From Thermoplasmata archaeon (GTDB lineage Archaea > Thermoplasmatota > Thermoplasmata > Lutacidiplasmatales > UBA184): a stretch of DNA of 64,000 nt. Below the pieces are notes generated by a model. That model was not told where the DNA came from, did no database searches, and saw only the letters and a program-made list of their open reading frames with translations. The stretch is from assembly GCA_028864975.1 (NCBI GenBank), contig JAGWLG010000008.1:1-64000 (forward strand). Direction: 5' to 3'. Below, piece after piece: positions 1,991 to 48,851 of the stretch. Numbering within the stretch: position 1 is the first letter of the stretch; each line of letters opens with the position of its first letter. Made by a program: the position numbers and the translations under genes.

Positions 1991-3154
1991 TCACCCCTTC
2001 TTCACGCTCTTCGACATGAAGTTCCCCAGGTTCCCCTGGATTTCCGCCTGCCTCTTCGTCTCGATGGCCTTCAGCAGTTGCTCTGCGCGCGTCGGGTCCC
2101 TGCCCTCCCGCTTCATCTGCGCGATGAGGTCCGCGACCTCGTCCACCTGCGTCTTCGTCCGGGCCAGCCACTCGACGAAGATTTGGGCCTTCTTCCCCTT
2201 CCCCTCGTCCTTGGCCGCCGCGCTCTGCGCCTCGGCGAAGTGTCGCATCACGTCGTCGTGGATGTCCTCCACACGCCCGAGCATCGGCGAGGCCACCCGG
2301 AGGACCTCCTGCGCGACCTTCGCCTCCTGCTCCGGGGTCGTCCAGAGCATGTAGCGCGTCGCCGACAGGTCGTCCATCCCCACGACGTCCCTCCCACCCA
2401 GGTAGGCGTAGGCCTTCAGGACCCCGACCGCCTGCTTGAAGCGACGTGGCGACGGCTCGATGCCGTTCGACCGGAGCGCCGCGCGAATCTGCACCAGTCC
2501 GGTGTAGACGTCGTCGGTCACCTCCAGCGCCGCGGTCTCCTTCTGGGCCTCGTGCAACTCATCCAAAGTGAGGTCCTGTTTCACCAGGCTCTCCGGGTCC
2601 GGCATCTTGAGCATCCGGAGGAACGAGTCGTTGTCCTGGATGTCTGGGACTCGGAACCGGAGCAAGAACCGGTCGTACACCGCCATCAGCCCCGGCTTCG
2701 TCGGGATGACGTTCGTCGCCGCCACCACGGACTGCAACGGGACCGGCACTACCCTGTCCCCCTCTTCGTAGAGCCGCTCATTGATGAGCCGCATCAGGGC
2801 GTGGAGGATGGGGTCGTTCGCGTTGAACACCTCCTCCAGGTACGCGATGTCTGCCGTCTGAATCCGGCCTGTCGTCACCCGGCGGTACTCGTCGTTCTTG
2901 AGCGCCTTGAGGCTCAGCGGCCCCAGCACCTCCTCCGTCGGCGTCGTCTCGAAGAGCAGCCGCTCGAAGATGCGCGCACCCTTCAGGTGGCGCACCAACA
3001 TCAGAAGCTGCTTCGATTTCGCGGTTCCCGGGGGACCCAGGAGTACGACGTGCTGCTTCGACAGCAACGCCGCGCTCGTCCCCAGGACCGGCTCGTCTCG
3101 TTCGACAAGCGCGCTCTGAATCTCCTTCGTCAGTTCGACAATCGGTCTCGTCAT
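1991..3154 (-). CDS. MoxR/RavA-like AAA+ ATPase
   Basis: Walker A GPPGTAKS, EEVLGPLSLKAL, Walker B YLEEVFNA, AATN, YDRFLLR, SPRR. The ATG at 3154 overlaps the upstream stop. Confidence 0.9.
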   Translation of the reverse strand: MTRPIVELTKEIQSALVERDEPVLGTSAALLSKQHVVLLGPPGTAKSKQLLMLVRHLKGARIFERLLFETTPTEEVLGPLSLKALKNDEYRRVTTGRIQTADIAYLEEVFNANDPILHALMRLINERLYEEGDRVVPVPLQSVVAATNVIPTKPGLMAVYDRFLLRFRVPDIQDNDSFLRMLKMPDPESLVKQDLTLDELHEAQKETAALEVTDDVYTGLVQIRAALRSNGIEPSPRRFKQAVGVLKAYAYLGGRDVVGMDDLSATRYMLWTTPEQEAKVAQEVLRVASPMLGRVEDIHDDVMRHFAEAQSAAAKDEGKGKKAQIFVEWLARTKTQVDEVADLIAQMKREGRDPTRAEQLLKAIETKRQAEIQGNLGNFMSKSVKKG

Positions 3155-3579
3155 GTTCCCTCTCCCTTCTTCCTTGATTCTTTCTTCTGGCCGCTCGCTT
3201 GCAGCAGCTTCGCCAGGTCCACTCCATCCCCCACCACGATGATGCCGCCGGGGCCGGGCGCACGGCGTCTCAACCACTCGTTCGCTATCGGCTGCGGGAG
3301 GAAGTGCAAGAGCGCCTCCAGTGCGTAGAGTACCGTGCTGACCACGGCGGTGTTCTCCTCCGGGGTCTTCCCCCACGCCTCCTCGCCGATGCTCGGGTCT
3401 CCGAGAATCGGGGCGACGTGGGAGCGATAGCTCTTCGTGTCCAGGTCCGCGTGCAACCGGACCGCCGCGTCCCACTCCGTCCTGGCCTTGTTCCAGTGCG
3501 GTGCCCCACCGATGAGCCAGTGGAGGAGCTTGTCACGTTCCCTGTCGAGGTCTTCCTTGCTCGCGTGTCTCGTTGGCAT
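3151..3579 (-). CDS. hypothetical protein
   Basis: 142-aa ORF, ATGA coupling to the ATPase. Confidence 0.7.
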   Translation of the reverse strand: MPTRHASKEDLDRERDKLLHWLIGGAPHWNKARTEWDAAVRLHADLDTKSYRSHVAPILGDPSIGEEAWGKTPEENTAVVSTVLYALEALLHFLPQPIANEWLRRRAPGPGGIIVVGDGVDLAKLLQASGQKKESRKKGEGT

Positions 3580-7432: not shown

Positions 7433-7680
7433 GCTCTGTTCCTCTTCACGACCGGCACGCACCCGAGGGCGCGCGCCACCGCCTTCGCCTCTTCCAGGGT
7501 GAACCCGAGAAACTCCCCGCTCTCCCCCGTCGGACCGACCGACAGGCGCAGGGAAATCTCCATGTCACCGGCCTGCACGCCCAGCGGGACGTCCACGACC
7601 CAGCCCCTTCCGGGCATGGTCCCAACGTCCGATAGGGTGCACCGCCGAATCTCCGCCTTCACGACCCTCAACTTCGCCAT
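7429..7680 (-). CDS. hypothetical protein
   Basis: 83-aa ORF, GGAGG upstream, first gene after an intergenic gap. Confidence 0.6.
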   Translation of the reverse strand: MAKLRVVKAEIRRCTLSDVGTMPGRGWVVDVPLGVQAGDMEISLRLSVGPTGESGEFLGFTLEEAKAVARALGCVPVVKRNRA

Positions 7681-7840
7681 CCTGCCTCCGTTGTACTGTC
7701 ACTATGGGGGTGTGGGCTGACTCTGGGAATGCCCGCCCCGTTATCTATCAACCTGTTTGCGAGGTTCATGGTGCGGTATCATGCCGCCTCGTCCGCGTCT
7801 CTTCCCGGGCGCCCGCCTGCGTCGTTCTCCCGCTTCCCCC

Positions 7841-8185
7841 TCACTTGCCCGCGGGCTCCAACCCGATGGGGGTGATGGGGGGTGTCCCGGTCAGCGTGTG
7901 GTAGGCTGCCTGCTCCGCGGGAGTCATGGACCCAAAGACCCGCATCAACCGCTGCGCGTGCCACTCAATCTTCTCGGCTAGCCGGTCTCGCCGCTTCTGG
8001 CCTCTCTGGTTGTTCCAGCGCCCGCGCAGCCGTGCGATGTGCGACCACTCGACCTTGGCCTCTTCGACTAGCCTCTGCCGGACCGGAACGTTGCGCGACG
8101 GGTCCTCGACCCTCGTTGCTCCGGTAGGTCCGGCAGCAGCCCCGCCGCCGCCATACGCCTCCAGCGGCGGTATCCCCTTGCCCAT
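7841..8185 (-). CDS. hypothetical basic protein
   Basis: Likely start MGKGI at 8185, next to the DUF559 stop. Confidence 0.55.
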   Translation of the reverse strand: MGKGIPPLEAYGGGGAAAGPTGATRVEDPSRNVPVRQRLVEEAKVEWSHIARLRGRWNNQRGQKRRDRLAEKIEWHAQRLMRVFGSMTPAEQAAYHTLTGTPPITPIGLEPAGK

Positions 8186-8186
8186 C

Positions 8187-8522
8187 TTACGACCCCTCTG
8201 CACTGGACGCCGCCTTCCTAATTTCGTTGACCACCGCTGTCGTCTCCTTCATCACCCGCTCCGCGTCGAATCGAATCACCCGCCACCCGAGTTGGTGCAG
8301 CCGGTGGGTCCTGAAGGCATCCCGACTCCGCTGCCGTGGGGTGGAGTGAAACTGGGCGCCATCCACCTCCACGGCCAGCTTCACTTCCGGGAAGGCGAAG
8401 TCAACGATTGCCTGGCAAGGGAGCCCCAGGTGCATGGCGTAGGATGCCCCTGCCGCGTCGAGAGCTTGCTTCAGGATTCGCTCAGGTTCTGAGGATGGGT
8501 TCTGTGGACTTGATTTTACCAT
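8187..8522 (-). CDS. DUF559/Vsr-like PD-(D/E)xK endonuclease
   Basis: SEPE..VDFAFPEVKLAVEVDGAQFH..RD..L..LGWRVIRF. ATG 8522 follows the GGY-NN array, whose last units form the SD. Confidence 0.85.
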   Translation of the reverse strand: MVKSSPQNPSSEPERILKQALDAAGASYAMHLGLPCQAIVDFAFPEVKLAVEVDGAQFHSTPRQRSRDAFRTHRLHQLGWRVIRFDAERVMKETTAVVNEIRKAASSAEGS

Positions 8523-8527
8523 GTTCC

Positions 8528-8607
8528 TCACCTCGCCGCACCAAACCAAACCTTGCCACGCCAGACCCTACCCCACCTGACCTGACACAACCTCACCCCA
8601 CCTTACC
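8528..8607 (-). ncRNA. GGY-NN repeat array B (16 five-nt units), candidate VIPR-type guide RNA
   Basis: Minus strand: GGT-AA GGT-GG GGT-GA GGT-TG TGT-CA GGT-CA GGT-GG GGT-AG GGT-CT GGC-GT GGC-AA GGT-TT GGT-TT GGT-GC GGC-GA GGT-GA, preceded by a GAAA-loop hairpin (8613-8633). Confidence 0.8.
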
Positions 8608-8631
8608 CCACTGAAACGGGTTTCCCCGTGT

Positions 8632-9210
8632 TCAGCGTGACTTCTTGGGCTTCTCCACCTCGAAGCTCTCGACCTCGAAGGTCCCGAACTTCGGACGGTA
8701 GTCGCCCAAGCCCTTGGAGAATCCGCCGTTCTCCAGGAACTCGCGGACCTGCGGCGCGCTCATGTTCGCCGGGTCGAGGTTCTGGATGGTGAACTCCAGC
8801 CTCCACTCGCTGAACTTGGGTCGCGCCCGGGTGATGCCCCTCCCCATCACCACCGCTCGACGCACGTCGATGTCGTACGTCTTCGCCGGCTTCCCTTCCC
8901 CGTTGAGCAGGGGAATCATGTCGGGTTCCACCCGAAGGCCAGAGCGGACGAAGCCCTTGTAGGTCTTCTTTCCGCGACCCTCGACCAGATGGTCCTTCGA
9001 TGCCGCCACCAGTAGGCCCTCGACGTGGTCCGATGGCTCGTAGATGCCAACCTTCTCGTCTCGAAAGAGCGACTGCTCCGCCTCGACCTGTGGCGTCGGC
9101 ACCACCGTCTTGCTCTTCTTCGGCTCGCCGCCCAGCTTCACCGGGTACCGGTGCTGGAGCAGTGGCCGTGTTCCTCGTATGGCGACTCTGTACGTCTCGC
9201 TCTCTCGCAT
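8632..9210 (-). CDS. Cas7/RAMP-like protein (Vipr-like)
   Basis: N-terminal YRVAIRGTRPLLQH, RARPKFSEWRLEFTI, C-terminal Gly-rich loop GLGDYRPKFGTFEV; flanked on both sides by GGY-NN arrays. Confidence 0.8.
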   Translation of the reverse strand: MRESETYRVAIRGTRPLLQHRYPVKLGGEPKKSKTVVPTPQVEAEQSLFRDEKVGIYEPSDHVEGLLVAASKDHLVEGRGKKTYKGFVRSGLRVEPDMIPLLNGEGKPAKTYDIDVRRAVVMGRGITRARPKFSEWRLEFTIQNLDPANMSAPQVREFLENGGFSKGLGDYRPKFGTFEVESFEVEKPKKSR

Positions 9211-9219
9211 GTTCTCTCC

Positions 9220-9294
9220 TTACCTCACCAAACCGTGCCGAGCCGAACCGTGCCCCGCCTTGCCGTGCCTGGCCCCGCCAGGCCTGGCCGGACC
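9220..9294 (-). ncRNA. GGY-NN repeat array A (15 five-nt units), candidate VIPR-type guide RNA
   Basis: Minus strand: GGT-CC GGC-CA GGC-CT GGC-GG GGC-CA GGC-AC GGC-AA GGC-GG GGC-AC GGT-TC GGC-TC GGC-AC GGT-TT GGT-GA GGT-AA (15/15 GGY), preceded by hairpin CTCCA-N7-TGGAG (9299-9315). Confidence 0.8.
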
Positions 9295-9317
9295 CGGTCT
9301 CCATGTTTGGTGGAGCG

Positions 9318-10013
9318 TCACAGAATCTCCTGGCCTTCCAGGATGGCCAATCCGAACCTCCGCAGGAGCGTTCGCTCCTGGGACTCGATGTCGTCGTCGA
9401 GAAGCAGCGGACGAGCCTCGACTGGAATCGAATACTGCGTGTTCCCGAATCTGTCCTTCACCTCTCGAACGTACTGCTGAATCTTCCGCGCCTCTCCGAG
9501 GGCGACCATTGGCTTCGGCGTCGCATCCGGGAAGAAGAATCCGTAGAGCGCATCGCGGTCTGTCGAGGAAAGGTACTCTGCCGCTGCCTGGTCTCCGAGC
9601 AAGTATTGTTCGGGGCCTGAGACGTACTGGGCGAAGTTTGTCCCGCGAATCGTTAGGAAGCGAATCCTCTCCAGCCAGTGCGGACCCAGCCAAATCGAGT
9701 AGTCGTACCTGGTCCGCTGGTCGGCCTCCCTCTTGGTGACGGGATTCGCTGGGAACCCCAGGTTGCGGATGAGCGTGAATCTGGGATGTGCTGCCTTGAA
9801 CGCACGCGCCGCCATCGCCACGTAGCTCGGCCTCGTACCGAAATCCTCCGGCTTCGCCGAGTCCCAGTTGCATCTGTGGCACTTGAGAAACCGGCCCCTC
9901 TTCGTTGTGGCAATCTCGGTTCGGTCTCCCAGCCCGCAACGTGGGCAGATGAACGGTAGCTGCTCCTGTTCCTTCGCTGTCGGTTCCTTCGCTGTGTCGT
10001 TGGTCTCTGGCAT
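9318..10013 (-). CDS. Zn-ribbon protein, possible degenerate nuclease fold
   Basis: CPRCG...CHRC N-terminal ribbon; start MPETND at 10013. Confidence 0.65.
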   Translation of the reverse strand: MPETNDTAKEPTAKEQEQLPFICPRCGLGDRTEIATTKRGRFLKCHRCNWDSAKPEDFGTRPSYVAMAARAFKAAHPRFTLIRNLGFPANPVTKREADQRTRYDYSIWLGPHWLERIRFLTIRGTNFAQYVSGPEQYLLGDQAAAEYLSSTDRDALYGFFFPDATPKPMVALGEARKIQQYVREVKDRFGNTQYSIPVEARPLLLDDDIESQERTLLRRFGLAILEGQEIL

Positions 10014-10026
10014 TGCTCTCTCCCTG

Positions 10027-10452
10027 TCAAACGTGGAATTGGTTGACGTGCCTGGCAGCCGACCCGGCTCCGTCCCAGCATCCATCCTTGAGGCAGTGGA
10101 AAACGAGGTCCTCGCAGATGATACAGTTCTTGCTGAACACCACTCCGTTGTCGGTGTGGGTCTTGTGCCGCTCCCCTTCCCGCCTGGTTTCGCGCTCTGC
10201 CTCCAGACGCTGTCGTTCCTCGGCCTCTCGCTGCCGGTCGAGTTGGTAGCTGCGGCGCTCCTCCGGGGTCATCTCCCAGAAGGTCTTCCCATACCGCTCA
10301 CGAAAGGCCTGTAACTGCCTCGCCTCCCCTGTCACATGGCGACGTACCGCTTCCGCTCCCTTCTCCCGAAGGCGATGGTTGCATCGCTGCTTTCCACCCT
10401 TGGTAGGGTGAGTGTGGTCGAAGCCACCGTTGCTACAGTTCTTCACTGTCAT
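10027..10452 (-). CDS. Zn-finger protein
   Basis: CIIC...C..GC......HxxxxH; start MTVKNC at 10452. Confidence 0.6.
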   Translation of the reverse strand: MTVKNCSNGGFDHTHPTKGGKQRCNHRLREKGAEAVRRHVTGEARQLQAFRERYGKTFWEMTPEERRSYQLDRQREAEERQRLEAERETRREGERHKTHTDNGVVFSKNCIICEDLVFHCLKDGCWDGAGSAARHVNQFHV

Positions 10453-10793
10453 ATTGGTAGCCTCGTTGGCACGATGCCCGTGTCCGGTGACCGCTGGGCG
10501 ATTCTCTTCCACGGGCGCTCCTGGTCCCATCTGAACCCACACGCCCTACAGCGGTGGGGTCGTCGGTGGAACCTCCTCTTGATTCTGATTCCGCAGGCGT
10601 GGACACGTTGGCCTGTTCGTGTTCCCCCTGGACAAGGTGGGTCGTCCGGGTCGATGCGACGGAGCATCCCGCACGCCGGCATGCTACACCCCGCCCGTCT
10701 CGTGAACAGGTCGAAATCCTTTTGCGGGAAGGGGGAATCTAACTCCCGCGGAGACGTAATCCTCCGGCCCGACCCTGGAAGCGGGACCACCAC
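10449..10793 (-). CDS. Cys-rich basic protein (start uncertain)
   Basis: CSMPAC...CRACG. Confidence 0.5.
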   Translation of the reverse strand: MVVPLPGSGRRITSPRELDSPFPQKDFDLFTRRAGCSMPACGMLRRIDPDDPPCPGGTRTGQRVHACGIRIKRRFHRRPHRCRACGFRWDQERPWKRIAQRSPDTGIVPTRLPI

Positions 10794-44143: not shown

Positions 44144-45337
44144 ATGGCCGGAGACATCACAAGGTCGGCGGGATCTGGGACGCCTGCTACGATACCAAAC
44201 CACTACTCCCCACGGCTAAGTGAACTGGACCTCCGCATGGTCAAGGCCATCCCTCCGGGGGGGAACTGGAAGTCGATTCCACTGGACATTCCGTCGAGAC
44301 GCCTCTCTCAGATACGGCGGACCTTTCTGTCGGGAAATGGCAGCAGGTCCACGTACTATGGTCGGCTTGACCCGGACATGCCGGCGTTCACAATCAGCAC
44401 CTGCATCAACAGACCCGGCAACGGTTGCTACATTCACTATGACTGGGAGGGGGGACAACACCGCCTAATTTCCCAGCGGGAGGCTGCCAGGCTTCAAAGC
44501 TTTCCGGATTGGTTCGCTTTCCAGGGCACTCGAGCCTCCGTCAATCGTCAGATTGGAAATGCCGTCCCACCCCTTCTTGCGCACCACGTAGCGCGGAAAT
44601 TGGGACGCCCGGGTGTCTTCGTCGACCTGTTCTGCGGCGCGGGTGGGCTTTCCCTCGGGTTCAAGATGGCTGGATGGACCCCACTGATTGCAGTGGACCT
44701 CGACCCGAGTGCAGTCGCCACATATGGTCAGAACGTCCACGAGTCCGTGGTCGCGGGCTCGATAGAGGACGATGCGGTTTTTGAGGCGCTGCTCGAGAAA
44801 GTTGGCGAGCTTCGGCCGTCCGACCAACCCATGTTTGTAGTGGGGGGGCCGCCGTGTCAGGGATTTTCGACCGCGGGTAATCGGCGCTCAACCGCCGATC
44901 CGAGAAACTCTCTGTTCCGCCGCTTTAGCATGTTTATCGAAGAGGCACGACCCGACGGTTTCGTTTTCGAGAACGTGCCTGGGATTCTGAGCATGGACCG
45001 CGGCCGGTTCTTCGGTGTTATCCTTCACGAACTGTCAAAGCACGTCGCCGGAGTCAGTCACTGGCAGCTTGCAGCCGTTGAATTCGGAGTTCCGCAGCGC
45101 AGGCGCCGTGTATTCGTGGTCGGGCGACGGAACCAATCCGGGAAGCTCAGCCCCCCGGCCCGCGTGACTCGCCTCCCAGACGGCCAATCCTCTTTGGATG
45201 GTGTCGCAAGAGCCATCTCGGTAAGAGAGGCCCTGAGCGATCTGCCGCCGCTAGTTGCGGGTGAAGATGGAAGCCATCTCGACTACGTTCACGCTCCAGA
45301 AGGTGCTTACCAAGAACTCATGAGGAGAGGGCGTTAG
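44144..45337 (+). CDS. circularly permuted C5-cytosine DNA methyltransferase
   Basis: Motifs IX-X (REAARLQSFPD, QIGNAVPP) precede I (DLFCGAGG), IV (GGPPCQGFS), VI (ENVPG), VIII (QRRRR). Confidence 0.9.
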   Translation: MAGDITRSAGSGTPATIPNHYSPRLSELDLRMVKAIPPGGNWKSIPLDIPSRRLSQIRRTFLSGNGSRSTYYGRLDPDMPAFTISTCINRPGNGCYIHYDWEGGQHRLISQREAARLQSFPDWFAFQGTRASVNRQIGNAVPPLLAHHVARKLGRPGVFVDLFCGAGGLSLGFKMAGWTPLIAVDLDPSAVATYGQNVHESVVAGSIEDDAVFEALLEKVGELRPSDQPMFVVGGPPCQGFSTAGNRRSTADPRNSLFRRFSMFIEEARPDGFVFENVPGILSMDRGRFFGVILHELSKHVAGVSHWQLAAVEFGVPQRRRRVFVVGRRNQSGKLSPPARVTRLPDGQSSLDGVARAISVREALSDLPPLVAGEDGSHLDYVHAPEGAYQELMRRGR

Positions 45338-47900: not shown

Positions 47901-48851
47901 TCACGCCAACTGGAGCGTGAAGGCGATGGTCCCGTCGCCGACCTTGGGCACCGTGGTTCCGGGTGTCACCGACCAGGTCACACCGGCTGCGCCGTTCTGG
48001 AAGCTCTGGCCTTGGAGTTGAGCCGGCGGCGCCGGACTGAAGGGTGGCAGGAACACGGTGGCCTGCAACTCCAGGTAGTGCGTGGCGTCTGCGGTGAACG
48101 TCGAGGCCTCCGTGAGGGAGTCCCCGTTCGCGGCGACCGCGGTCCCCGAGGCCGTGTAGGTCGCCGTGGAGTTCGAGGCGACCATCACCAACTGGTCGAG
48201 GATGGTCTGCCCGACGGTGTAGACCCCCAGGTCCTGCGCCTGGAACGCCTCGATGCTGGAGGCCTCCCCACCGGTCAAGGCGACCGTGGAAGGGACCTGG
48301 GTCAGCCGTACGACTCCGCCAGCGAGACGGGTCCCGACGCCGGCGCTCTGGGCGCTCCCGGTTGACCCGGTTGTGGTCTTCGCCTCCGGCCGGAAGCCGT
48401 GGATGCGGAAGGTCATCCCGGTGTTCGGCAGCAGAGCCGCCGGCACCGTCGTCCCCGCGCCACCGGCGAGGATGGCGACTGGGGTCGTGGAGCCCTTCGG
48501 CTGGTAGAGGATGTTCAGCCCCTGCGACGGGTTCGAGTAGTCGAGGGTGACGATGTCCTGGGGTTCGAGACCGACCTCGATGAGGAGGGTGACCGCACCA
48601 CCCCTGACCCCGGCCGCGGTGACGCTCGCCACCAGCACTGTCGGGAGGATGGGCTTGAAGGTCGTCTTCTGGTTGGGGTTCACCGGCACGGCGCCGAGCC
48701 CGTTCTTGAAGAGCGACGGGTCCGTTGCCGTGATGGCCTCGAACATATCGTCGGTGATGGAGAAACCACCGGCGAAGACCGAGGCGGAAGGGTTCGTCAC
48801 GTAGGCGGCCGGCGCAGCGGCGAGCGCTGTGGCGAGGGGAGGCAGAACCAT
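47901..48851 (-). CDS. beta-rich Ala/Thr/Gly protein, putative virion structural protein
   Basis: 316 aa, few charges; TATA-like element about 25 nt upstream. Confidence 0.7.
   Translation of the reverse strand: MVLPPLATALAAAPAAYVTNPSASVFAGGFSITDDMFEAITATDPSLFKNGLGAVPVNPNQKTTFKPILPTVLVASVTAAGVRGGAVTLLIEVGLEPQDIVTLDYSNPSQGLNILYQPKGSTTPVAILAGGAGTTVPAALLPNTGMTFRIHGFRPEAKTTTGSTGSAQSAGVGTRLAGGVVRLTQVPSTVALTGGEASSIEAFQAQDLGVYTVGQTILDQLVMVASNSTATYTASGTAVAANGDSLTEASTFTADATHYLELQATVFLPPFSPAPPAQLQGQSFQNGAAGVTWSVTPGTTVPKVGDGTIAFTLQLA

Follow-up and report, generated by a model that had tools for sequence, protein, structure and literature searches.

The array of 5-nucleotide units that follows a Cas7-like gene on the minus strand of this contig (array B) is very probably the guide RNA (vrRNA) gene of a VIPR system, carried by an element of about 120 kb that is probably viral and was binned with an archaeon. 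This reading follows from two results, one from the window (the whole 64,000-nucleotide stretch analysed here) and one from related loci: the gene upstream of the array is a Vipr homologue, and same-strand GGY-NN arrays adjoin Vipr homologues in 138 of the 163 loci that we fetched (opposite-strand arrays occur in 3). VIPR (Viral Interference Programmable Repeat) systems are CRISPR-related, RNA-guided DNA-binding systems of viruses, first published in 2026 (bioRxiv 10.64898/2026.04.26.720920,.720927 and 10.64898/2026.10.15.759431), and array B is a further example of the published kind rather than a new kind. As the preprint text describes them, a lone RAMP protein, Vipr, polymerizes on a vrRNA of 9–16 GGY-NN repeats, the NN bases of which pair with double-stranded DNA such that every third base is skipped, the ‘1-nt skip’ rule (bioRxiv 10.64898/2026.04.26.720920). 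The gapped NN.NN.NN reading proposed in an earlier note on this DNA is this same rule. According to the text of the cryo-EM paper, G1, G2 and Y3 of each repeat are held by H17, R138, D177, W178 and R179 of SUSP1 Vipr, and the Y3 pocket excludes purines. The experiments presented in the preprint text concern type II systems, from phages of Escherichia and Pseudomonas.

As a vrRNA we counted at least 4, and typically 9–16, tandem GGY-NN units with variable NN, beside vipr and on its strand. Read directly from the letters, array B comprises 16 consecutive units (8607..8528), of which 15 have an intact GGY (12 GGT and 3 GGC, with 1 TGT). The NN string is AA GG GA TG CA CA GG AG CT GT AA TT TT GC GA GA, and both this string and the triplet counts in the earlier note match the minus strand exactly. 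On the 5′ side the letters AGTGG (8612..8608), described there as a degenerate unit, are present; they are better read as the arm of a hairpin than as a repeat unit, because the hairpin takes in most of them. On the 3′ side a GGAAC unit is followed by an ATG at 8522 (Table 1). A period-5 scan of the window returned arrays A and B only, and a GGY-NN caller run over the whole 3.6-Mb assembly added one marginal 7-unit call; the assembly has these two arrays only, and a single vipr. The two arrays share at best 8 of 22 NN positions in any register, and array A is mainly GGC. The earlier note's view of array B as an independent, second guide, and no recent duplicate of array A, therefore stands.

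Table 1 Features of the VIPR locus, in positions of the window
Feature	Position	Strand	Basis
DUF559/Vsr-like (PD-(D/E)xK) nuclease, 111 aa	8187..8522	-	PF04480, E = 2.4e-14
Terminal GGA-AC unit (GG + purine), closes array B	8523..8527	-	Direct read
Array B, predicted guide part of the vrRNA	8528..8607	-	16 GGY-NN units; same-strand arrays beside vipr in 138/163 loci
Hairpin with a GAAA loop on a 12-bp stem (one C bulged)	8609..8637	-	RNAfold; lies over the vipr stop
vipr, 192-aa solitary RAMP/Cas7-like protein	8632..9210	-	Homology to SUSP1 Vipr and AF2 model; vrRNA coating predicted
Array A, predicted first vrRNA	9220..9294	-	15 GGY-NN units, mostly GGC

It is extremely improbable that array B is a simple repeat that arose by chance, or that it serves as a repeat at the coding or DNA level, for instance as iterons bound by a protein. 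Open reading frames do cross it, such as 8336–8614 on the plus strand, but a 5-nt period does not fit the codon frame, shuffled sequences yield approximately zero such arrays, and the arrays are strand-specific and linked to vipr across very different hosts.

The Cas7-like character that had been assigned to the neighbouring gene was borne out. We took as a Vipr protein a solitary RAMP that has an RRM core, a glycine-rich loop and a thumb and is homologous to SUSP1 Vipr, and the gene product fits this description. Its 192-aa product belongs to no Pfam family, matches phrog_4652 and is not matched by PADLOC. An AF2 model (pLDDT 91.8) has Csm3/Cas7 subunits as its best Foldseek matches, and the protein aligns with PDB 36pp_D, ‘SUSP1 Vipr protein’, at E = 3.5e-23 with a clade profile and at 9e-8 with the single sequence. 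Aligned residues of SUSP1 and window Vipr are H17/H20, K33/K32, K82/K72, R138/R130, D177/D170, W178/Y171 and R179/R172, so the residues that hold G1, G2 and Y3 (H20, R130, D170, Y171 and R172) are conserved; Y171 is aromatic like its SUSP1 counterpart and is also Y in the homologue of Pseudomonas phage LESphi2. The 126 phage records retrieved with tblastn include those of Felixounavirus (Escherichia phage phiSUSP1 among them), of Escherichia phage SUSP2 and of Mycobacterium, Gordonia and Pseudomonas phages. A search of genome contigs gave one distant Clostridia locus only, and a search of viral contigs with the single sequence gave no match; the closest protein (P0002) is 53% identical.

The 163 loci include 75 from IMG/VR and 80 from metagenomes, the latter search having been run with a 9-sequence alignment. 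In 97 loci arrays follow the vipr stop, with a median gap of 17 nt, and among relatives at 28–47% identity an array directly 3′ of vipr is the commonest layout, with upstream arrays such as array A less common. Array B therefore lies in the usual guide position. The NN strings vary between arrays and between loci. After 206 terminal arrays the next unit is GGA in 23% (12 times background) and GGG in 13% (8 times background), as it is at the end of array B. Since the published Y3 pocket excludes purines, we infer that such a GG-purine unit acts as a stop for the Vipr filament, and would do so at this locus. Neither arrays A and B nor close relatives share a 3′ tail resembling the type II pseudoknot. 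Comparison of the 163 loci suggests three testable rules for the clade: a guide directly 3′ of vipr, a GG-purine end to the array and a small nuclease gene at that end.

Some loci of the clade depart from this anatomy. In one subclade (L137, L140, L147, L148 and L158) a conserved 3′ hairpin, AGCGGGCAWGACCCGCT, lies right after the array with a T/A run behind it; it has the look of a tail or terminator and sets these loci apart from the window. In L106 (3055–3755), one of the 3 loci with arrays on the strand opposite vipr, three GGY-NN arrays of 16–18 units flank a DUF559 gene. In L095, L099, L102, L089 and L103 a 204-aa vipr overlaps a 95-aa DUF559/Vsr gene, and the GGY-NN caller found no array in most of these five loci, which may use a variant repeat.

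The earlier note had also described a GNRA-capped leader hairpin before array B and had taken it to mark a processing or loading site. The hairpin itself is present and is larger than had been proposed. It pairs CGCUGAA and ACGGG, with a C bulged between them, across the GAAA loop with CCCGU and UUCAGUG, and takes in the last sense codon and the TGA stop (8634..8632) of vipr. Its predicted energy is -18.2 kcal/mol (z = -5.15), and none of 200 shuffles folds as well in RNAfold. A dedicated role of the hairpin in processing or loading, in which it would set the 5′ end of this vrRNA as the counterpart of the type II 3′ pseudoknot, would fit its stability, its end 1 nt before the first clean unit and the small hairpin (CUCCA/UGGAG) found 4 nt upstream of array A. 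The family as a whole does not bear this out. The 36-nt flanks 5′ of 97 arrays show no more folding than control windows, and the composition-corrected z for 67 first downstream arrays (the window and 66 non-redundant relatives in which no more than 40 nt separate the vipr stop from the array) is -0.22, against -0.20 for controls. Stop-codon hairpins are no commoner where an array adjoins, and the spacer between vipr and array in most close relatives is 0–20 nt and usually unstructured. By z the hairpin of the window is the strongest or among the strongest, and by energy it ranks third in stability among the 97 upstream flanks.

A comparable stop-codon hairpin occurs in one small subclade only, the proteins of which end in ...VTAFKEA. 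It is a bulged 10-bp tetraloop hairpin over the stop, in the last 30 nt of vipr (L098, L090, L097 and L086). Two of its pairs are kept through double, protein-silent changes, a point in favour of a processing or loading role, but both come from a single sequence; in L097 synonymous and stop-codon changes come in pairs that preserve the hairpin. The hairpin is degraded in L084, L092 and L104, in which no array lies close behind. Because array 5′ flanks across the family fold like controls, a processing or loading role lacks support, and we consider it unlikely. We rate more highly a lineage-specific boundary, which would either stabilize the vipr message at its 3′ end or stop the filament on its 5′ side, since the family-wide tests are negative and a similar hairpin is confined to one subclade. 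Eye-catching as it is, the hairpin offers no general handle on the family. Elsewhere among the relatives, hairpins resembling a tRNA T-arm (GGTTCGAnTCC) lie 5′ of arrays in Mycobacterium phage LittleE (L006, 2755–2790) and Gordonia phage MakoManhole (L007, 1658–1693 and 2993–3028). ARAGORN reports no tRNA at these hairpins or near the arrays of L002 and L005–L007; a tRNA-maturation enzyme might process the RNA at these hairpins.

At its other end array B runs into a gene for a DUF559 nuclease that starts 5 nt after the last unit. The GAGGTGA of the last units lies 5 nt before the ATG and, together with GGAAC, forms the Shine–Dalgarno region of this gene; it complements the 3′ end of the 16S rRNA of the assembly, GGATCACCTCCT. 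In the closest relatives a small open reading frame starts between -7 and +10 nt from the array end and encodes an HNH-like protein of 90 aa or a DUF2726-like protein of 135 aa (both below the Pfam threshold), or DUF559. DUF559 homologues also lie right after vipr in L083, L095, L099, L102, L089, L103, L106, L125 and L009. Because small open reading frames recur at array ends and the last units in the window match the 16S end, an operon of vipr, guide and nuclease, in which the end of the guide serves as the ribosome-binding site of the nuclease gene, appears from the sequences to be a recurrent design. VIPR systems comprise, besides Vipr and vrRNA, an accessory gene, vap, next to vipr, and the nuclease is likely to be a vap-like accessory effector. 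It also matches a homing endonuclease model in PADLOC and could be a selfish, homing-type insertion.

This arrangement raises the question of whether array B serves chiefly as a cis-acting leader, bound by Vipr, through which translation of the nuclease is controlled, and lacks any target in trans. The match of GAGGTGA and GGAAC to the anti-Shine–Dalgarno end of 16S rRNA, the nuclease-like open reading frames at array ends and the failure of our searches to find a target (below) would all fit. A ribosome-binding site needs the last 2–3 units only, however, whereas 16 units with diverse NN have been kept; NN strings differ between arrays and loci, as those of guides should, and many relatives have an array without a gene behind it. 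Control in cis is, moreover, compatible with guidance in trans, and we regard a purely cis-acting array as improbable. With array B as a guide, Vipr on its last units would hide the ribosome-binding site of the nuclease. A fuller form of this idea, for this nuclease-linked clade with its guide inside the vipr–nuclease operon, has Vipr coating gate nuclease synthesis, the closing GG-purine and last units being the nuclease ribosome-binding site, and has the filament bounded by a 5′ hairpin in place of a 3′ pseudoknot; it is speculative and on balance doubtful. If true, it would be a form of guide maturation and self-control that is absent from the VIPR preprint text.

By analogy with the published type II mechanism, array B and vipr would be co-transcribed from the minus strand, and one Vipr protomer would bind each GGY through H20, R130, D170, Y171 and R172. 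The 16 protomers would form a helical filament that presents 16 NN dinucleotides, and these would base-pair with double-stranded DNA, each third base being passed over, at a 47-bp site of the form AA.GG.GA.TG.CA.CA.GG.AG.CT.GT.AA.TT.TT.GC.GA.GA. A competing mobile element would be its most likely location. With the DUF559 nuclease taken as the effector, the target would be cut, not merely silenced.

Searches for such a site, scored with the rule of at least 80% of NN positions used in the VIPR paper, were negative throughout the collections covered. In the assembly itself the best match under the 1-nt skip rule is 21 of 32, the same as for shuffled guides, and rules with skips of 0–3 gave only a self-match at a skip of 3. 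No site was found in 401 genomes of the same class (28 informative positions, up to 3 mismatches). Five exact 8-unit seeds hit 119 loci in IMG/VR, about what is expected by chance (tens per seed), and the best full score there, 24 of 32, is below 80%. These searches are less sensitive than the profile searches of the VIPR papers.

The absence of a target from every collection searched would also suit an orphaned or decoy guide, the target of which has vanished, or a guide aimed at the VIPR machinery of a rival. Solo and decoy vrRNAs, as well as vrRNAs aimed at other VIPR loci, are described in the text of the October 2026 preprint (bioRxiv 10.64898/2026.10.15.759431). Against this, a scan of the 163 VIPR loci with the guides of both arrays gave at most 24/32 and 20/30, array B is intact and regular, and the lower sensitivity of our searches weakens the argument from missing targets. 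We consider an orphaned, decoy or VIPR-directed array B a minor possibility, and favour a guide with a target in a competing element.

Compared with the type II VIPR systems (Escherichia phage SUSP1 and a Pseudomonas fulva prophage), the locus shares a solitary small RAMP with GGY-binding residues, a tandem GGY-NN guide on the vipr strand in flanking intergenic DNA (9–16 units there, 16 here), two independent guides, carriage on a mobile element and the lack of a CRISPR array. It differs in that the Vipr proteins are only approximately 26% identical, the host bin is archaeal and a DUF559 nuclease takes the place of the DNA-binding vap1 as partner. The type II vrRNA is presented in the preprint text as having an invariant, structured 3′ tail or pseudoknot and no 5′ hairpin, whereas array B has a 5′ hairpin and ends in a GG-purine unit and the next start codon. 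The nuclease-associated types III–V, as far as the preprint text describes them, resemble the window in linking vipr to a small predicted nuclease, with one or few guides, and an HNH-type vap is mentioned among them in the legend of fig. S21 (bioRxiv 10.64898/2026.04.26.720920). DUF559/Vsr-like nucleases are not named in the preprint text. Types III and V are described as residing mostly in host defence islands; this locus and many of its relatives (IMG/VR contigs) are instead on viral or, in the case of this locus, probably viral elements. The locus thus adds a well-resolved VIPR example, with two guides and a PD-(D/E)xK nuclease partner, from an element binned with an acid-mine or soil archaeon.

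Cas7/Csm3 of class 1 CRISPR–Cas systems has the same fold as Vipr by Foldseek and, according to the text of the cryo-EM paper, likewise places one protomer on each fixed RNA step with thumb-mediated base flipping. The period in class 1 is 6 nt with 5 informative bases, compared with 5 nt and 2 in VIPR, and the locus, unlike class 1 systems, has no repeat-spacer array and no other Cas-like protein. A search of the window for repeats with periods longer than 24 nt found none, and hence no CRISPR repeat-spacer array. The (G/U)AG-NN repeats bound by TRAP resemble array B in that an oligomer reads a triplet every 5 nt and the array lies over a ribosome-binding site. TRAP has an unrelated fold and a different triplet, and we rejected a TRAP-like attenuation array on the basis of the Vipr homology.

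Array A reaches into the ribosome-binding site of vipr and, like array B, closes with a GG-purine unit (9215–9219). Gene X (9318–10085), which encodes a zinc ribbon, has no homologue among the 162 other fetched loci and therefore lies outside the VIPR module. At E ≤ 1, Rfam has no match in 7500–10500, so neither a hammerhead nor any other known RNA is present in this region.

The contig is 119,883 bp long and carries phage-like genes, consistent with a viral element. Its assignment to an archaeon comes through binning alone; the 16S rRNA gene of the assembly scores 1488 bits with an archaeal model and 1095 bits with a bacterial model. The same stretch occurs, with zero differences, in mine-drainage and soil metagenome contigs from two studies, and because these copies are identical they provide no NN variation. 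Other short contigs of the same metagenomes (runs X2, X3 and X6) match array A in part (9251–9295) and then continue as different GGY-NN arrays; further VIPR loci therefore share these communities. Other features of the window are a MoxR-type AAA+ ATPase (1991–3475), a C5 cytosine DNA methylase (44144–45337) and a tRNA-Arg(GCG) (48495–48583). Each of the four array borders (8526, 8633, 9214 and 9308) carries the minus-strand motif RAACAYG, with 7 copies in the 925 bases of 8520–9444 and 36 in the whole window, compared with 21 expected from shuffles.
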